A stretch of 64,000 nucleotides of DNA, from sequence record PP526941.1; one strand, written 5' to 3'. Position 1 is the stretch's first letter, and the number at the start of each line of letters is the position of its first letter. The stretch comes from Escherichia phage vB_EcoM_ECO78. The notes beneath the pieces were generated by a model. It saw only the letters and a list, made by a program, of their open reading frames with translations. It made no database searches and was not told the origin of the DNA. Of the stretch, positions 38,187 to 47,023 are shown piece after piece. A program made the position numbers and the translations under genes.

Positions 38187-40364
38187 TTAGGCCGCAAGGG
38201 CCTTCATAGTTTTAGCGATTTGGGAAACTTCATCATCACTTAAAGAGTTGCGATAACCGATGAAGTCGGAAACAATACGGAATTTCTTGGTAAACTCAGC
38301 AACCATTTTATCACTATTTTTTGAAGCATTATTTGATAATACATCAAAAAGATTAGTTACTGTCCAGATGTCATGACCGATGGTACCTTTTCCACCGTTG
38401 AAATATATACCCTGTAATGAACTAACCATATTACCAAGGCGAGTATATTCTTCAGAAACTTCATCTACACTGAAGTACTTCATCATAAAATCGAGTTCAG
38501 GATACTTAATAATTTTATCAATATATCGTTTAGCTGAACTTGAATAACCTACATACTTATCATAATCTACAGCATCAAAAGCATCTACATATAAATCACG
38601 CAGAGTTTCAAAAATACATTGGCACTGACCAAGTTCTTTTACCTTTTTCTGCAAAAGCGGACGAATAACATAAAACTCATTAATGCCAATAAGATTAGCC
38701 ATACGAGTCAAAATACTCGTAGATGGATGACAAAGCGATGTAGTACCATCCATAGAGAAAATATCAGAACGATGCATATACGCTACATAACCAGTAATTT
38801 CATCTGCTTCTGACGTAAGTGTAAACAGTTCCTCTTTTTCCCAGCGCCCATCTTTAATTTCAAACTTAAACGCAGTAGCAGTTTTAGGACGAGGAGCTTT
38901 ACTTTTAACTGCCTTCGGAATATAACTTTTAACTAAAGCTTCAATTTCTGACAAATAATGAATGTTAACTTCATCACTTTCAAACATTGCCATAATATCA
39001 GGGAGTAAATCAATCTGCGATTCTACTTCCGGATTAATAAACAGAAGACGCTCATTATGATGAATATTCAAAGTGTTGTTAAATTCTTTATCATCTAACG
39101 CATGCGCTAATCCACGGACAATATTAACACGATTTTTAATATTATCAATAACGATATTAATTTTTGTTGTATTAATACCGAACAGACGATAACTTGATGC
39201 AATGGCTGAAGTTTCATGACTTTGCTTAATGCGTTTCAGTCGAGGGTCAAGATTTACTTCATACACAACTCCTGCATTGCATAACTTACTGTCAGGTTCA
39301 AACATGCTTTGCATCTTCTTATATGACAGATTTTTAGTCGTAAATTTGACTGAATTACTAATCATATAATCTCGAGCAGAATATCCCATCTTCATCAATT
39401 CACGGTATGTATGACGAGGAGATGTAGATTCTTTAAATCGTTTTACATCTTCATTGAATGCTTTCTCACTAAGCTCTTTAACACGCTCAATAATATTTTT
39501 ACGAGTACGATCATCTAATGAAAGAGCTTCGCGCGATGGAGCAATATCCAGTGAACCCATTGGAAACTTAATGTAATTCACTTCATTGCGGATGCTTAAC
39601 CAGTTGCGGTCTCTAATAACACCATCGATAGGATAAACAATACCACCATAGATAGCATACAATCCACCACGATCTGGCCAGTATCTTTCTGGATTTACGC
39701 CGTAATAGTCATCAAAATCCGGAAAATAATCAATTTCGCGGTCAAGACCATTAATGATAGCTAAATCTTTGAATGGTCGCATGATATAAGAAACTTCATA
39801 AGCAAAGTTTCTAAAGTCTTTTTCTTCAACTGGAACTACGATTTCAATACCAGTTTTATCATCTGGACCCATTTCTTTTACAAATGTAGGTTTAATTTGT
39901 GGACCATCGCCATCCATGTAAGCTACATAACCACGAATTTCGCCTTTATGATATGAAGTAATACTAAATGTATCAGTATAACTAAACGGAGATTTAGAAC
40001 CTAAACCAAATCCGCCAATGAAATCGTTAGATTCAGCCTTAGATGAACTAAAGTATGAATTATACAACCCAGGAGAATTATCATCACCCTGAATATCAAA
40101 ATCGCTCATACCCGGACCAAAATCTCGGCAAACAAATCGTGGATCTAATCGTCCTGGAACTTGAATGATAAATTTTTCAGGATTTCCATTGAGAGCATGG
40201 GCATCAATCATGTTGGTAATCAATTCACGGACTACTGCGCGAATCTTGTTTGTATACAAATCAGATGACAGAATTTTGAATACTTTAGGAGATGCTGTGA
40301 TGCTAAATGCCTTTGATTTAGAACCATTACCAAGAATTGTTTCTTTTTCAGTGGTGATAATCAT
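38187..40364 (-). CDS. rIIA: rIIA (725 aa)
   Basis: Length identical to T4 rIIA; ATPase-like N-terminus. Confidence 0.92.
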
Positions 40365-40374
40365 AATTTCCTCA

Positions 40375-40578
40375 TTAATTCATATTGCGTTTAATAACTT
40401 CAGCAACTTCTAGTAGTTCATCTTTAGTTGCGGTGTCGGATTGAATTTTATCTCTAATATCCTTAAAGCGGTTTTTAAACTCTTCAGCTTCTCCCATATC
40501 GAAAAAGCGTTGAATGATTCTATATTCTCGATGAACTGCTTTATCAAAAAGTTCTAAATTTACTTTATATGATTTCAT
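40375..40578 (-). CDS. hypothetical protein (67 aa, T4 rIIA.1 position)
   Basis: ORF downstream of promoter at 40604-40633. Confidence 0.5.
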
Positions 40579-40603
40579 TTCAATATCCTCATTTGCCCAA
40601 TTA

Positions 40604-40633
40604 ATTATACCACATCCTTGTGGTAAAGTAAAC
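40604..40633 (-). promoter_or_regulatory. early promoter (GTTTACT -35, TATAAT -10)
   Basis: Repeated promoter pattern overlapping gene 39 stop. Confidence 0.5.
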
Positions 40634-42450
40634 TATTGGCTCATCCATTCTTTACGAAGGTCAGCATTATCTCCCATGAGCATTTCAAAAAGCTCTTTCC
40701 AATTCTCAGGAAGTTTAACAACATCATATACTGGGTTTTGAATCATCTCACGATATTCAGATTTTTCCAAAGAGCCAAGTCCCTTAATATAACGGATGCT
40801 ATGTTTAGGTAGAGCATCTTTGGCACTCTCATATTCAGCGACTGTATAAAACCATTCTTGTTTTTTACCGACCTGAGCGATGATTACAGGAGTTTTGACG
40901 AAGCGAATTCTTCCTTGTTCAAACAGTTCTGGCCAATTACTAAAAAATCCGAGCAGAGAAGGATAAATGCTTCCTAGACCATCATGGTCGGCATCGGTCA
41001 TAATTGCAATATTATGATAATTCAAGTTTTCAGCCTTTTCACCAAGAACTAATCCGGTGATTGCGCAAATATCAAACAGTTCTTTATTTTTAAGCATATC
41101 AGCATATGACATACCCCAACTGTTGAGAACTTTACCACGCAATGGATAACCACCATGAAGTTCTTTATCACGAACATCAATAAGATATCCGATAGCAGAA
41201 TCACCCTCAGTCAAGAAAAGAGTAGTGTCAGCATCTTTACCACAAAGATTCGCTTTAATATGTTTATGAACCTTAGCTTTAGAAGCCTTTTTAGCTGCTT
41301 TAGTTTCTGCTGCCTTTTCTGCAGCCAATTTACGAGCCAAAGCAGCTTCAATAATTGGCATTAAAATTGCTTCATTATTTAAAATAGCACGTGAAATCTT
41401 TTTAGCATCAAGCTGAATATGACTACGAATTTCACCAAATGGAGAAGTCAAACGCTCTTTAGTCTGAGAATCAAATCGCATGTTTTTCATATCACGAACA
41501 AACATAACGATAGTCAAACATTCTTTAACACGTGCTTTAGTTACATCAATTTTGAACTTGCGTTTGATTTGTGGAATAAGGTCTTCACAAATATCATCCA
41601 TAACGCAGTCAATATGATGGCCACCATTCTTAGTATGAATGTTATTGACGTATGTTAATTGACGAAAACCATCCGGTGAACGACCAACCGCAATAGAACA
41701 ATTTTCTTGTTCTTGAACGATAGCATGCTCATCATATTGGCGTGCGTATTTCTTAAAATTACCCTGAACCTTTTTACCATTAAAGGTAAATTGAATATCA
41801 GGATAAACTACTGCAAGTGTCTGGAGACGATCTAGCGTAATGTCAAGATAAACTTGAGATAGCTCATTAGTTTCAAATGACATAAAATCAGGAATGAAAG
41901 TAACACGTGTTCCTTTCCATTTTCCAGGAATAGTTTCCCATGATTTATTTTCCATGCCATTTGAACAACGAACTACAATATTATTTTGACCATCGCCAGT
42001 TTCACCGACAAACATCACAGAAAAAATGTTAGTTAAACTAGAACCAACACCGTTCATACCGCCAGTGACGCGTTCTTTATCATCACCGAAGTTACCACCT
42101 GCTTTTGGAATAGTCCAGGCAGCAACAGGACCAGGAATTTCTTCACCGGTAGGTGTTTTAACCATCGCTTGTGGAATACCACGACCGTTATCTTCAACTG
42201 TTACTTGATTGTTTTTAATAGTAACATTAATTTTATTCGCGAATTTAAACTTAGTACGAATACCTTCATCTACTGAGTTATCGATAATTTCATCAATAAG
42301 CTTAACAAGACCAGGTACATACTGAACACTTTCCCATTTACCAAACAGAAAACGCTCATGCATTTCATTAGCGGAAGAGCCAATATACATGCCGCTACGC
42401 TTTTTGATATGTTCAATATCGCTCAGAATTTTAATTTCATTCTTAATCAT
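40633..42450 (-). CDS. 39: topoisomerase II large (ATPase, GyrB-like) subunit, contiguous 605 aa (T4 genes 39+60 equivalent)
   Basis: ATG at 42448-42450 (track start is GTG); C-terminus ...NADLRKEWMSQ continuous with no bypass gap. Confidence 0.92.
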   Translation of the reverse strand: MIKNEIKILSDIEHIKKRSGMYIGSSANEMHERFLFGKWESVQYVPGLVKLIDEIIDNSVDEGIRTKFKFANKINVTIKNNQVTVEDNGRGIPQAMVKTPTGEEIPGPVAAWTIPKAGGNFGDDKERVTGGMNGVGSSLTNIFSVMFVGETGDGQNNIVVRCSNGMENKSWETIPGKWKGTRVTFIPDFMSFETNELSQVYLDITLDRLQTLAVVYPDIQFTFNGKKVQGNFKKYARQYDEHAIVQEQENCSIAVGRSPDGFRQLTYVNNIHTKNGGHHIDCVMDDICEDLIPQIKRKFKIDVTKARVKECLTIVMFVRDMKNMRFDSQTKERLTSPFGEIRSHIQLDAKKISRAILNNEAILMPIIEAALARKLAAEKAAETKAAKKASKAKVHKHIKANLCGKDADTTLFLTEGDSAIGYLIDVRDKELHGGYPLRGKVLNSWGMSYADMLKNKELFDICAITGLVLGEKAENLNYHNIAIMTDADHDGLGSIYPSLLGFFSNWPELFEQGRIRFVKTPVIIAQVGKKQEWFYTVAEYESAKDALPKHSIRYIKGLGSLEKSEYREMIQNPVYDVVKLPENWKELFEMLMGDNADLRKEWMSQ

Positions 42451-42519
42451 CACTTATCCTCGTTTGGTTTCGGGAATATTATACTCCGGTAATCATAAAG
42501 CTAAAGGCCCGAAGGCCTT

Positions 42520-42780
42520 TTATTTAAAACGGATAGTCGAATCCTTGAAGAATAGACCAGAACATACGGTTCCTTCTACTTTCTGCCCGGTAGGTCCAAT
42601 AGCACGAAATCCAGTGTGTTGGAAATCATTTTCAGAGCAACCGAACCAGTTATATCCAGTGATTTCAATATTAGTAAAACCGCTTGAAGACAAAATTTTG
42701 GTTGCATTATCAGCATCAGTACATCCTGCTAAAGACACTGCTAATACTAATGCTGCGATAGAACGATTAACATATTTCAT
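42520..42780 (-). CDS. predicted lipoprotein (86 aa, lipobox LAGC)
   Basis: Signal peptide MKYVNRSIAALVLAVSLAGC. Confidence 0.5.
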   Translation of the reverse strand: MKYVNRSIAALVLAVSLAGCTDADNATKILSSSGFTNIEITGYNWFGCSENDFQHTGFRAIGPTGQKVEGTVCSGLFFKDSTIRFK

Positions 42781-42784
42781 AATT

Positions 42785-43156
42785 TCACTCAAATTTAATG
42801 GCTTGAAGGAGACTAATAATTCTCAAGCGACTTCTTTCATCTTTAACTGTAAAAGAAAGAGGGTCGCCAGATTTCATAGTAATAGTACATTCAAAATCAA
42901 AATCTTCGGAAACTTCTTTGAAGAAGTCAAATTCTTCATCATAAATTAAAACATTACTCTGACAACTATGAAGAATTTTTCCATCATTTCCAGATGCTGT
43001 ACTAATCATTGTAACATTATGACCTTTCATATCTTCAACGATAAATTCACTAGTCAATATTACAGCATTAATAGAACTATTCCTATTACTAGCAGAAAGT
43101 AGATATTTCTGTTCTTCACCTTCACGAATGCGATATTTCTTACCGATTTTAAACAT
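42785..43156 (-). CDS. hypothetical protein (123 aa)
   Basis: ORF upstream of lipoprotein gene. Confidence 0.5.
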   Translation of the reverse strand: MFKIGKKYRIREGEEQKYLLSASNRNSSINAVILTSEFIVEDMKGHNVTMISTASGNDGKILHSCQSNVLIYDEEFDFFKEVSEDFDFECTITMKSGDPLSFTVKDERSRLRIISLLQAIKFE

Positions 43157-43158
43157 AA

Positions 43159-43335
43159 TTACCCTTTAAGTAAGTCGTAAAATCCACCATTCACATGCTT
43201 AGGAGCGGAAACTAACCGAATGGCAATCCGATGACAATCAGGACATACATCAGTATCCCTTTCAGAAATTTTCTTGATTTTTTCGTATTCATTCCCGCAA
43301 TCTTCGGATTGGCATTTATAATCATACATTGGCAT
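43159..43335 (-). CDS. FmdB-like zinc-ribbon protein (58 aa), below ORF-track cutoff
   Basis: Hand-translated MPMYDYKCQSEDCGNEYEKIKKISERDTDVCPDCH...; two Cys pairs. Confidence 0.45.
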   Translation of the reverse strand: MPMYDYKCQSEDCGNEYEKIKKISERDTDVCPDCHRIAIRLVSAPKHVNGGFYDLLKG

Positions 43336-43337
43336 AA

Positions 43338-43757
43338 TTATTCCTTAAAGTGTGCTTTCAACATCTGATACAAGGACCATGCCTGTTCATTATTTTCAAT
43401 AGTAACTTTCATGATAGGAAATTCTGTGAAATCTTCTATTTGTTCTTGCTCTTCCTGCTCTTGTTCTTCAGCAGCCTGATATGGATTTTCCACTTCATTA
43501 AAGAACCCAGCTTCGTTAGTAGAGAGCCAGATAAAGTTTTCGTCAAGGATATCACCATGTGTTGCATATCCAACTGTGCCAGTAGATGTCACAATTTTAG
43601 TAGGACGACCAAGATGGTCAACATCTAAAATTTTAAAAGGATGCATACCTAAACGTCGCGCATAGATTCCATTATCAGTATGGTCTTTAATAAAATTTTC
43701 TTGAGCTTGTTTATTTTTAAATTGATACCATTTATTAACTTCAAATCTAATAGCCAT
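43338..43757 (-). CDS. hypothetical protein with acidic [10 protein letters not shown] tract (139 aa, T4 goF position)
   Basis: ORF; low-complexity acidic segment. Confidence 0.5.
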
Positions 43758-43972
43758 TAATAAATTTCCTTCCAGTAAGTTGTGCCATCTTCAGTAATTT
43801 CACGGAATACACCGTAAATAGGTTGTTTATCACCAACCTTTTCATACACATAAACCGAAGTCAAGTGAGTAAACTTAACGGTGTGTTCCTTTTGAACTAC
43901 TACCAAATCTGGATCGAATAATACATCTTCAAATTCGTCATTAGTGCAATTCTGAACATTTTTACGTTTCAT
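43757..43972 (-). CDS. hypothetical protein (71 aa, size and position of T4 cef)
   Basis: ORF with ATGA overlap to downstream gene. Confidence 0.5.
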
Positions 43973-44149
43973 TACAATTTCCTCATTAATTGAACATTGG
44001 AGCGATGCGTTTCAGAAGAGTGACAGCACCTTTGGCAAATTTTCCATTTTATTCTCCAAGTTGTTTTCTGTATCAGTAGTTGATATTGATATAGTACCAT
44101 AATCAACTACTGATGTATATAGTTTTATGAAAAAAAAAAAAATTAAACT

Positions 44150-44647
44150 TTATGCACAGCGGGCTTTGCTATAGTGTTTAATCCAACTTTCAGGAATGAC
44201 TTTGTATGTTCCTAAAAATACCGCGTTGTATAACTTAACACCATCTTCTACCCATTGATCGGTAATGTATGCACACATAGCACGAGTACGATGTTTTTGA
44301 ACAACCCCTTCCTCATCTTCGGTAAATTCGAATTCATAAGGAGCAATAAACTTAATAGCCTGACCGAGTTTCCACTTAAAGTCTACACCTACATGCGAAG
44401 TATCAATCGTTTCAATTCCTTTAGCAGGAACAGCTTTCAAAAACGCAGACTCAAGAAATTTCGCACGAACATAGCCAAACTGGGGTTTAGACTTTCCATC
44501 TTTAGGAATGATACGCACTTTTACTTCAGAATCTTCATATTTAACACCATGTTTAAGCTGAATGCTTACAATTTCAACCAATTTTCCTGCTGCTTTAGAA
44601 CGGGATTTATCAGATACACGAGCTAATTCACCAATATTAATAATCAT
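44150..44647 (-). CDS. hypothetical protein (165 aa, T4 motB position)
   Basis: ORF; C-terminal block shared with the upstream paralog. Confidence 0.5.
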   Translation of the reverse strand: MIINIGELARVSDKSRSKAAGKLVEIVSIQLKHGVKYEDSEVKVRIIPKDGKSKPQFGYVRAKFLESAFLKAVPAKGIETIDTSHVGVDFKWKLGQAIKFIAPYEFEFTEDEEGVVQKHRTRAMCAYITDQWVEDGVKLYNAVFLGTYKVIPESWIKHYSKARCA

Positions 44648-44691
44648 AGTTATCTCTCACTTGTTAAAAAGATTTTATACTCCACAGGACC

Positions 44692-44721
44692 ATTATACTC
44701 TGGTCCCAAGAGTTTGTAAAC
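44692..44721 (-). promoter_or_regulatory. early promoter (GTTTACA -35, TATAAT -10)
   Basis: Repeated promoter pattern. Confidence 0.5.
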
Positions 44722-44723
44722 TA

Positions 44724-45266
44724 TTAATTCAAAATAGCTACAACCGCACTACGGGGTACTACGCTAAAATCACCTGCATGAACAACGTTCAGAAGTTCAA
44801 CGCCATCTTCAATCCACTGGTCTGTTACCCATCCACAGACCGAAATAAATGGGGTCTTAATAGCTACAGCACGAGTTAGAAGGTCAGTAGGATCGCATTC
44901 TTGGAAGAGGATAAGCTCTGCTTCAAAGACTATAGTTTTAATTACTTCATCATTATCTAAGCGTTGTGCTCGAATCACATAAGCTTTATTCTTATCGTGC
45001 CAGTTACTTTTTGAAAAACTTTTAACCACAAACTCGCCTTCACCAAAAACACTAGTCAATGCTTTATAACCCAAACTTAGTTCAGTAGTTTTAATTTCAG
45101 TTTCAACCAGTTTGTAGATTTTGCCAATTTCAATGGTCCGAGCAGTCATAAAGGTTTCCTTAATTTCTAATGGTTTAACAAGAGTGCCGTGCATGCTTGC
45201 TATATCCATATCAAATATTTTATCTATAGGATTTGGGGTGTATTCAGGATTATAATTAAATTTCAT
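44724..45266 (-). CDS. hypothetical protein (180 aa), paralog of 44150..44647
   Basis: Shared motif TDQW(V/I)EDGV(K/E)L.N.V. Confidence 0.5.
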   Translation of the reverse strand: MKFNYNPEYTPNPIDKIFDMDIASMHGTLVKPLEIKETFMTARTIEIGKIYKLVETEIKTTELSLGYKALTSVFGEGEFVVKSFSKSNWHDKNKAYVIRAQRLDNDEVIKTIVFEAELILFQECDPTDLLTRAVAIKTPFISVCGWVTDQWIEDGVELLNVVHAGDFSVVPRSAVVAILN

Positions 45267-45268
45267 AA

Positions 45269-45781
45269 TTATCTCATTTCAATAAAATCTACAAGTTCAG
45301 CATGGGATTTGCGGAACATTACTTGGTGTCCGCCAATGATAACTTCATCTTCAGGAACTTCATAAATCGCAATGTACATTCCACGATCTTTTAAGTCTTC
45401 ACGCTCTTCTCGGGTGAACCATCTCATCATATCATATTCACTAGCGAAAGCAAAATGGTATAATGCAATAAACCGCGATGGAATATACCTTTCAGACGGT
45501 GAATAATTTTTATCCCATTTAGTTTTAATAACATCATTAGCATTTTCAACTAATAACTTATCATCGTGTGGAATAGGAATACTTTCATGGCTTTCATAAT
45601 TATCGCTATGATGATGAAATGACGATGAATTAATACCGCAAAATTTTAGCCAAGTTCGAGTTTTCATAGAATCAAATCCACGATAAGGAGTTGATTGAAC
45701 GCATAACTCTTGCCTAATTTTCACTATACCACTATCATCATTTAATGCGCTAAACGATGATTCAACACGATAAATTTTCAT
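45269..45781 (-). CDS. hypothetical protein (170 aa from MKIYRVESSF)
   Basis: Track N-terminus crosses the promoter; ATG at 45779-45781 with GAGGA RBS. Confidence 0.45.
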   Translation of the reverse strand: MKIYRVESSFSALNDDSGIVKIRQELCVQSTPYRGFDSMKTRTWLKFCGINSSSFHHHSDNYESHESIPIPHDDKLLVENANDVIKTKWDKNYSPSERYIPSRFIALYHFAFASEYDMMRWFTREEREDLKDRGMYIAIYEVPEDEVIIGGHQVMFRKSHAELVDFIEMR

Positions 45782-45808
45782 TTTATTATCCTCAGTAGCT
45801 ATGGTGTT

Positions 45809-45838
45809 ATAGTACCACAACTAACCGAGGAAGTAAAC
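45809..45838 (-). promoter_or_regulatory. early promoter (GTTTACT -35, TACTAT -10)
   Basis: Repeated promoter pattern. Confidence 0.5.
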
Positions 45839-45844
45839 AACTTT

Positions 45845-46528
45845 TTATCGTTTTGTTGGAAGAGATAGAGGATCGCACTCTTCCTCTGACGGAGCATCTT
45901 CAAGACCCATAGCATACCGCAAAGCATACTTCATCATCAGGATGTCTTTCGCGCAGTCATGAATAGAATCATGTGCAACGAATCCATCTAAAGTTCCCTT
46001 TGGAAGAGGACATGTAGTCATATCACGAACAAGCAGAAGTGCTTCAATTCTAGTACGAATATCACGTTGATTCCAGAATTTACATGGTTCTAACTTAAAT
46101 GTGTCAAGTTCATTCTCAGAAACGCCGTTAAGACGCTGAATATCGCGAATAAGATCGACTAAAATTGGAAAATCAAATGACATTCCACGGCACCAGCCTT
46201 GAGATTTCCAAGGATCGATGTTATGTGCATTAATGTAATCATTAAATTTTGCAATACCATCGATAGTGCTTACATCTTCATTTGATGGCGCAATATTTTT
46301 TCGAGCTTCAGGAGACTGATTTTTCCACCATTCAATAGTGCTTTTAGTAAAAAGACGATGTCCTTTTTGGCTTTTTAAATCAAACTTGATTTTAATGCCA
46401 CGTGAAACTAATTCATCAAAGGATTCAACTACTTCTGGATTAGGGTCAAAGGCAATAACAGCTAAGTCAATAACAGCTGCTTTTTCACCGCTTCCCATTG
46501 TTTCAAAATCTATAATAAAATCAAACAT
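45845..46528 (-). CDS. dexA: exonuclease A (DnaQ-like 3'-5' exonuclease, 227 aa)
   Basis: DFETMG exo I motif; T4 dexA size and position next to dda. Confidence 0.8.
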   Translation of the reverse strand: MFDFIIDFETMGSGEKAAVIDLAVIAFDPNPEVVESFDELVSRGIKIKFDLKSQKGHRLFTKSTIEWWKNQSPEARKNIAPSNEDVSTIDGIAKFNDYINAHNIDPWKSQGWCRGMSFDFPILVDLIRDIQRLNGVSENELDTFKLEPCKFWNQRDIRTRIEALLLVRDMTTCPLPKGTLDGFVAHDSIHDCAKDILMMKYALRYAMGLEDAPSEEECDPLSLPTKR

Positions 46529-46803
46529 TAAATTTTCCTCGCTAAATCGCGAATTTGACCTACAGTATAATCTTGGATATAAACTTTATTAATGGGCTCA
46601 TCAATAAATTTTGCCATAGATTCAATATCTTTTTGTATCTCTTCAAGACTGTATACTATCTTTAAAGCTTTTTCGCGAATAGTAACATTATCAGGTCCTG
46701 GATTTTCTTGAATGACAGCTTTAACATTTGCCATAAGAGATTTAAACTGATGCAAACTCAATTCAATCATTAATAACCGCCTTATAAAGATGGCTAATTT
46801 CAC
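46528..46803 (-). CDS. hypothetical protein (91 aa)
   Basis: ORF; similar to adjacent 86-aa ORF. Confidence 0.45.
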   Translation of the reverse strand: MKLAIFIRRLLMIELSLHQFKSLMANVKAVIQENPGPDNVTIREKALKIVYSLEEIQKDIESMAKFIDEPINKVYIQDYTVGQIRDLARKI

Positions 46804-47023
46804 CTAAAATATAATCACTAATTGTAACAGTTTTCACTTCACCGCAAAAGAATTCTAACGCAATCAAATCTCGTTCAATTTCTTCCAATTGAAGCATTAA
46901 CTTGCCTGATTCAATTTTCACGTTTTTGCGATTTTTACTATAAGCTATTTCATAAATTTCGCTCACTTTATCTTGAAGCAGATAAAACTGATCTTTAGTT
47001 ATTTCCACGAATAGCTTCCTCAA
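46763..47023 (-). CDS. hypothetical protein (86 aa)
   Basis: ORF; shares LEEI(Q/E)(K/R)D motif with neighbour. Confidence 0.45.
   Translation of the reverse strand: MRKLFVEITKDQFYLLQDKVSEIYEIAYSKNRKNVKIESGKLMLQLEEIERDLIALEFFCGEVKTVTISDYILGEISHLYKAVIND

Follow-up and report, generated by a model that had tools for sequence, protein, structure and literature searches.

A 58-codon zinc-ribbon gene of Escherichia phage vB_EcoM_ECO78 identified by sequence and gene order as the ortholog of T4 early gene 39.2

The window analysed here is a stretch of 64,000 nucleotides from Escherichia phage vB_EcoM_ECO78 (PP526941.1). Judged by sequence and gene order, the open reading frame at 43159..43335 is a Tequatrovirus ortholog of 39.2 (NwgI), an early gene of T4, because the gene at the matching position of the RefSeq RB18 genome, whose local order is identical to that of the window, is noted as 'gp39.2; 39.2', and because 39.2 of T4 (NC_000866) lies between goF and 39.1. 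The gene is genuine, but already known and already annotated as T4-type 39.2; its product is best explained, with good probability, as a GroEL modulator of T4-like phages resembling gp39.2. An earlier note on this DNA had presented the frame as an unannotated ORF for an FmdB-like zinc ribbon. The word 'unannotated' holds for an ORF track limited to 60 aa, but public Tequatrovirus records do annotate the gene, under such names as 'FmdB-like transcriptional regulator', 'zinc ribbon domain-containing protein', 'hypothetical protein' or gp39.2, and its identity as an already studied T4 gene went unrecognised.

The genomic neighbourhood is that of a T4-like early region (Table 1). A stretch of 1.8 kb around 39.2 is 95-96% identical to many Tequatrovirus genomes, and the minus-strand order reads goF, 39.2, a goF-like ORF, 39.1 and 39; goF also directly precedes 39.2 in the RB18 and T4 annotations. 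In the more distant phages phiR1-RT and Phi1, the 39.2 homolog likewise adjoins gene 39. At the protein level, identity amounts to 84.5% with T2 gp39.2, 89.7% with a T4 clone, and 93% with many Tequatroviruses, while 48 of the 58 residues (i.e., all but ten substitutions) are shared with the repaired frame of the T4 reference described below. Likeness to T4 gp39.2 therefore extends from position (between goF, which directly precedes it, and 39.1/39, in an early leftward unit) to length (58 aa, as stated in PMC5153855), sequence (83-90% identity), the CX4C…CXXC ligands and the GFYDLLKG tail. Two differences are apparent: T4 RefSeq annotates a product of 45 aa, compared with 58 aa here, and the goF-like ORF found here between 39.2 and 39.1 has no counterpart at that place in the T4 reference, whereas it is annotated in RB18 (RB18ORF005). 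As a result, 39.2 of this phage is flanked by goF-family genes (PHROG 622) on both sides.

Table 1. Coordinates of the 39.2 ortholog, its elements and its neighbours in the window
Feature	Position	Strand	Basis or remark
Gene 39.2 ortholog (by sequence), CDS of 58 aa plus TAA stop, FmdB-family zinc ribbon	43159..43335	minus	ORF/translation, PF09723, TIGR02605, RB18 'gp39.2' note, pN/pS
Shine-Dalgarno AAGGA	43342..43346	minus	read from sequence; 6-nt spacer to 39.2 ATG
Predicted first zinc knuckle, codons 8-13, C-QSED-C (CX4C)	43297..43314	minus	C8 invariant, C13 in at least 90% of diverse homologs
Predicted second zinc knuckle, codons 31-34, C-PD-C	43234..43245	minus	C31 and C34 invariant in alignments of 16 and 92
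C-terminal tail, codons 44-58, APKHVNGGFYDLLKG	43162..43206	minus	conserved in T4-like orthologs
rIIA	38187..40364	minus	T4-like early region
rIIA.1	between rIIA and fused 60+39 in listed order	minus	T4-like early region
Fused 60+39 topoisomerase subunit	40633..42453	minus	single ORF of ~605 aa
39.1	42520-42792	minus	T4-like early region
goF-like paralogue (RB18ORF005 type), 123 aa, downstream of 39.2	42785..43156	minus	PHROG 622 at 6.8e-30
goF, 139 aa, upstream of 39.2	43338..43757	minus	ORF; PHROG 622 and goF families
cef, further small ORFs and motB-type ORFs beyond goF	motB-type ORF 44150-44647	minus	T4-like early region
dexA	45845..46528	minus	T4-like early region

Some features of the neighbours deserve mention in their own right. 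The ORF listed for the topoisomerase II large subunit starts with a GTG codon that directly precedes the likely ATG; the T4 arrangement, in contrast, is a split 39/60 that includes mobA and the gene 60 bypass region. The 39.1 product starts with MKYVNRSIAALVLAVSLAGC…; this is a signal peptide of the lipoprotein type, and it contains the lipobox LAGC.

The frame itself runs from ATG to TAA and fills 43159..43335, the end coordinate including the stop. Its computed minus-strand product, MPMYDYKCQSEDCGNEYEKIKKISERDTDVCPDCHRIAIRLVSAPKHVNGGFYDLLKG, is identical to the translation that the earlier note had made by hand; the coordinates were also right, but the strand had been left unstated. A plus-strand reading of the same interval is riddled with stops and was rejected, which places the gene on the minus strand. 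The tight packing between two genes was likewise borne out: two nucleotides separate the goF stop (TAA, 43338-43340) from the 39.2 ATG, and another two lie between the 39.2 stop (TAA, 43159-43161) and the ATG (43154-43156) of the next ORF. Because the goF stop is only 2 nt away from the start codon, translational coupling of 39.2 to goF is likely. A translation signal is present as well: the Shine-Dalgarno sequence is embedded in the final codons of goF (…AAG GAA TAA), and the TTTAAGGAATAAT context 5' of the ATG is kept in the Tequatrovirus orthologs (L001-L003, L006-L023).

Scanning of positions 40000-47000 against Rfam (E <= 1) matched no RNA family, and a promoter and terminator scan of the region gave sites no more numerous than in shuffled sequences, none of them specific to 39.2. 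The best sigma-70-like site of the region, and the only strong one, is found 5' of motB at 44692-44720 on the minus strand (TTTACA-17-TATAAT, 11/12). Located just upstream of the motB-type ORF, it may serve the motB-cef-goF-39.2 block as an early promoter.

The length of the frame was dropped as a proof of the gene: in mononucleotide shuffles of the window (35.7% GC), 27.6 +/- 5.2 ATG-initiated ORFs of at least 58 aa arise by chance, and several spurious ORFs of about this size overlap true genes near 39.2. As length does not rise above chance, the reality of 39.2 rests on profile matches, conservation and purifying selection. The earlier suggestions of an FmdB-like zinc ribbon and of a real gene are upheld by these data, the former by the profile search that had been proposed as its check. 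With PF09723 (Zn_ribbon_8, Pfam) the product scores 44.2 bits, where the gathering score is 34.4 (E 1.9e-11); with TIGR02605 (NCBIfam, 'FmdB family zinc ribbon protein') it reaches 46.1 bits, above a cut-off of 31.3 (E 3.7e-12), and PHROG 1076 matches it over residues 1-56. A tblastn search matched the protein in 964 phage records, covering at least 80% of its length in 867 of them, with identities ranging from 98% to about 40%; Tequatrovirus, Tegunavirus, Krischvirus, and Citrobacter phage Moon and its relatives are represented, as are phages of Klebsiella and Serratia. Across genera, most of these records keep the frame intact. Among 20 distinct Tequatrovirus DNAs, pooled pN/pS is 0.11 and the variable columns are distributed over the three codon positions as 10/7/38, while all five other frames are interrupted by stops in nearly every ortholog. 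This support lies far beyond chance. The reading of 43159..43335 as a chance ORF or an untranslated spacer between goF and the downstream gene could appeal to the ~28 ORFs of this size expected in the window and to the T4 counterpart having been missed by mass spectrometry in one study (PMC9697503), but its probability is negligible and the comparative data exclude it: both profile scores exceed their curated cut-offs, third-position bias is strong, the frame persists down to about 40% identity, the Shine-Dalgarno sequence is conserved, and the other frames and Rfam offer nothing in its place. Table S2 of that study, a time course of T4, lists 39.2 among the early transcripts and its protein as undetected.

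The architecture of the product is that of the FmdB family (PF09723; TIGR02605, CxxC_CxxC_SSSS) with some departures. The family start MPxYxYxC begins at the initiator Met (MPMYDYKC), two ligand pairs formed by cysteines 8, 13, 31 and 34 are separated by 17 residues (between C13 and C31), and a G-G-F-Y follows the second pair. In 92 aligned family members, M1, Y4 and C8 are invariant, while P2 and Y6 occur in at least 90%. The four ligands of the family are thus all there, but the first pair lacks the usual CxxC spacing: its CX4C knuckle, common to all T-even orthologs, is found in only 7 of 125 family members, as against 103 with CXXC. The earlier note had made its proposal depend on conservation of the four cysteines in homologous loci, and this proved to be the case for C8, C31 and C34, which are invariant, and nearly so for C13, which is replaced by His (CEEH) in Phi1/Krischvirus. 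Krischvirus-type homologs (Phi1, L005 1501-1674; P0011, P0012 and P0050) carry a C-E-E/D-H first pair and, hence, a predicted Cys3His site, and homologs of the Citrobacter phage Moon type have the arrangement C-P-C … C-TNKD-C. Compared across T4-like genera, the ligand spacing of the 39.2 zinc ribbon appears unusually plastic. The 39.2 product is inferred to bind zinc.

Of the 125 family members, 99 carry a motif of the GSGFY type. The canonical FKGSGFYxTDY is shrunk to VNGGFYDLL in 39.2, and the tail of residues 44-58 is a derived form of this family motif. It is probably flexible, given a predicted structure in which pLDDT falls below 50 over residues 44-51 and block means over residues 41-58 are 51 and 48. 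Many bacterial members of the family bear a long, low-complexity tail rich in Ser, Gly and Pro, whereas 39.2 is phage-encoded and has no such extension. A first structure prediction, which was all-helical with a pLDDT of 53, had been built on an alignment of just five sequences and was discarded as unreliable. Searching PDB sequences with the family profile revealed no true FmdB-family member with a solved structure; the matches to designed and C2H2 zinc fingers, obtained via 'YKCPECGK', reflect a shared motif and not homology, and were set aside.

What is known of the function comes from T4. According to PMC5153855, which cites Ang & Georgopoulos 2012, gp39.2 (NwgI) is a protein of 58 aa that modulates host GroEL; genetics and biochemistry are said there to suggest that it shifts GroEL to an 'open' conformation that binds host or phage co-chaperones, and a 39.2 deletion mutant is described as completely blocked on specific groEL mutant hosts. 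The same summary of its action on GroEL is found in PMC4396842, again citing Ang & Georgopoulos 2012 (Genetics 190:989). Since identity is 83-90% and synteny is identical, the protein of the window most likely does the same as T4 gp39.2. On this reading, the gene would be transcribed from the minus strand with the early block motB-cef-goF-39.2-39.1-39, and its own Shine-Dalgarno sequence would direct translation, probably in coupling with goF. Residues 1-43 would fold into two beta-hairpins as a zinc ribbon with four ligands, its knuckles being C8-x4-C13 and C31-x2-C34, and would be followed by the short conserved tail (…NGGFYDLLKG), probably flexible, over residues 44-58; the notion that this aromatic tail serves as a contact element is speculation. 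The target, by orthology, would be host GroEL and not DNA. GroEL would be pushed to the open conformation that accepts a co-chaperonin (host GroES or phage gp31), and chaperonin-dependent folding of phage proteins would thereby be sustained on hosts with suboptimal GroEL; 39.2 would therefore be needed on particular groEL mutants, whereas on standard hosts the phage could do without it.

Phage co-chaperonins such as T4 gp31 and RB49 CocO offer a comparison, as they, too, are described as using host GroEL as the machine and serving the folding of phage proteins. However, gp31 and CocO replace GroES as a lid, whereas gp39.2 is described as shifting the GroEL equilibrium, not as capping. Being a zinc ribbon of 58 aa, gp39.2 is also unrelated to either in sequence and fold.

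Even a true gp39.2 ortholog might affect GroEL only indirectly or secondarily, its primary host target being another chaperone, a protease or a ribosome-associated factor. The very broad distribution of the FmdB family in bacteria (858 profile matches) suggests a more general ancestral activity, no linkage to groESL is seen in three bacterial FmdB contexts, the zinc-ribbon fold is a generic module for interaction with proteins and nucleic acids, and the summaries in PMC5153855 and PMC4396842 describe the modulation of GroEL only as an equilibrium shift. Nevertheless, genetic and biochemical studies are both said to support action on GroEL, and the deletion is reported to be blocked specifically on groEL mutant hosts (PMC5153855), so a different primary target seems unlikely.

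The widespread RefSeq product name 'FmdB-like transcriptional regulator' implies another role, in which the zinc ribbon would bind DNA or RNA polymerase and modulate early or middle transcription of the phage, or that of the host. This name is an inherited family label. Literature searches on the FmdB family yielded annotation mentions and no experimental demonstration of regulation. Zn_ribbon_8 is the sole Pfam match above threshold, with no DNA-binding domain in the 39.2 product, and matches to the RbpA-type fold are statistically not significant. As the sole experimental work found on a family member, that on T4 gp39.2, points to GroEL in the accounts cited above, a regulatory role has little to recommend it and we regard it as quite improbable.

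The GroEL-modulator reading of gp39.2 could conceivably be extended to the whole bacterial FmdB family, still labelled 'putative regulatory protein'. Its members might then be small chaperonin or chaperone modulators, not transcription regulators, with the G-S-G-F-Y tail as a client-like chaperonin contact, and with the CX4C knuckle and shortened tail of T-even phages as an adaptation to the phage. The idea arises because gp39.2 alone among the members has been assigned an activity by experiment, namely one on GroEL. None of the bacterial FmdB genes in the three genomic contexts has groES or groEL neighbours, so these contexts lend no support to a family-wide link with chaperonins; apart from the one phage case, nothing speaks for the idea, which is very doubtful. 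In two related Ktedonobacterales-type contigs (L041 4001-4865; L043 4001-4817), the FmdB-family gene is directly followed by a gene for D-Tyr-tRNA deacylase (PF02580), and next by genes for a xanthine/uracil permease and RNase H.

The T4 reference sequence shows an anomaly in this gene. T4 RefSeq (NC_000866.4) annotates 39.2 as 138 nt (45 aa), and the corresponding region (L002 2501-2680) contains an extra T (GCTTCCTAAG; both the window and T4 clone OL964735 read GCTCCTAAG) that leads to a premature TAA. Removal of this base restores the frame of 58 aa, ending in …APKHGNNGFYDLLKG (GFYDLLKG), and the restored length agrees with that stated in PMC5153855. The reference differs at about five further bases inside 39.2. 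The extra T probably goes back to an error in sequencing the reference or to a strain polymorphism. In the adjacent 39.1 equivalent (region 2681-2942), the frame opened by the upstream ATG (L002 2681) closes at a TAA some 24 codons on, and the annotated start of 39.1 lies further downstream; this gene of T4 may also be disrupted or mis-sequenced. Furthermore, the database proteins P0005, P0008, P0009 and P0010 are frameshifted versions of 39.2, with the N- or C-terminal half in another frame, a pattern compatible with the gene being dispensable or with homopolymers of this AT-rich stretch being often misread.

The finding has little significance beyond correct annotation, for which it nonetheless carries practical consequences. 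Small-ORF cut-offs, such as 60 aa, hide known T4 genes, of which 39.2 is a real, conserved and functionally studied example. The T4 RefSeq version, apparently truncated by one base, can hamper proteomic detection and the transfer of homology. For the 39.2 group, tied by experiment to GroEL alone, the name 'FmdB-like transcriptional regulator' lacks support and probably misleads. As the ortholog of T4 gp39.2, the gene would encode a non-essential early factor that tunes the host by keeping its GroEL cycle fit for folding phage proteins.
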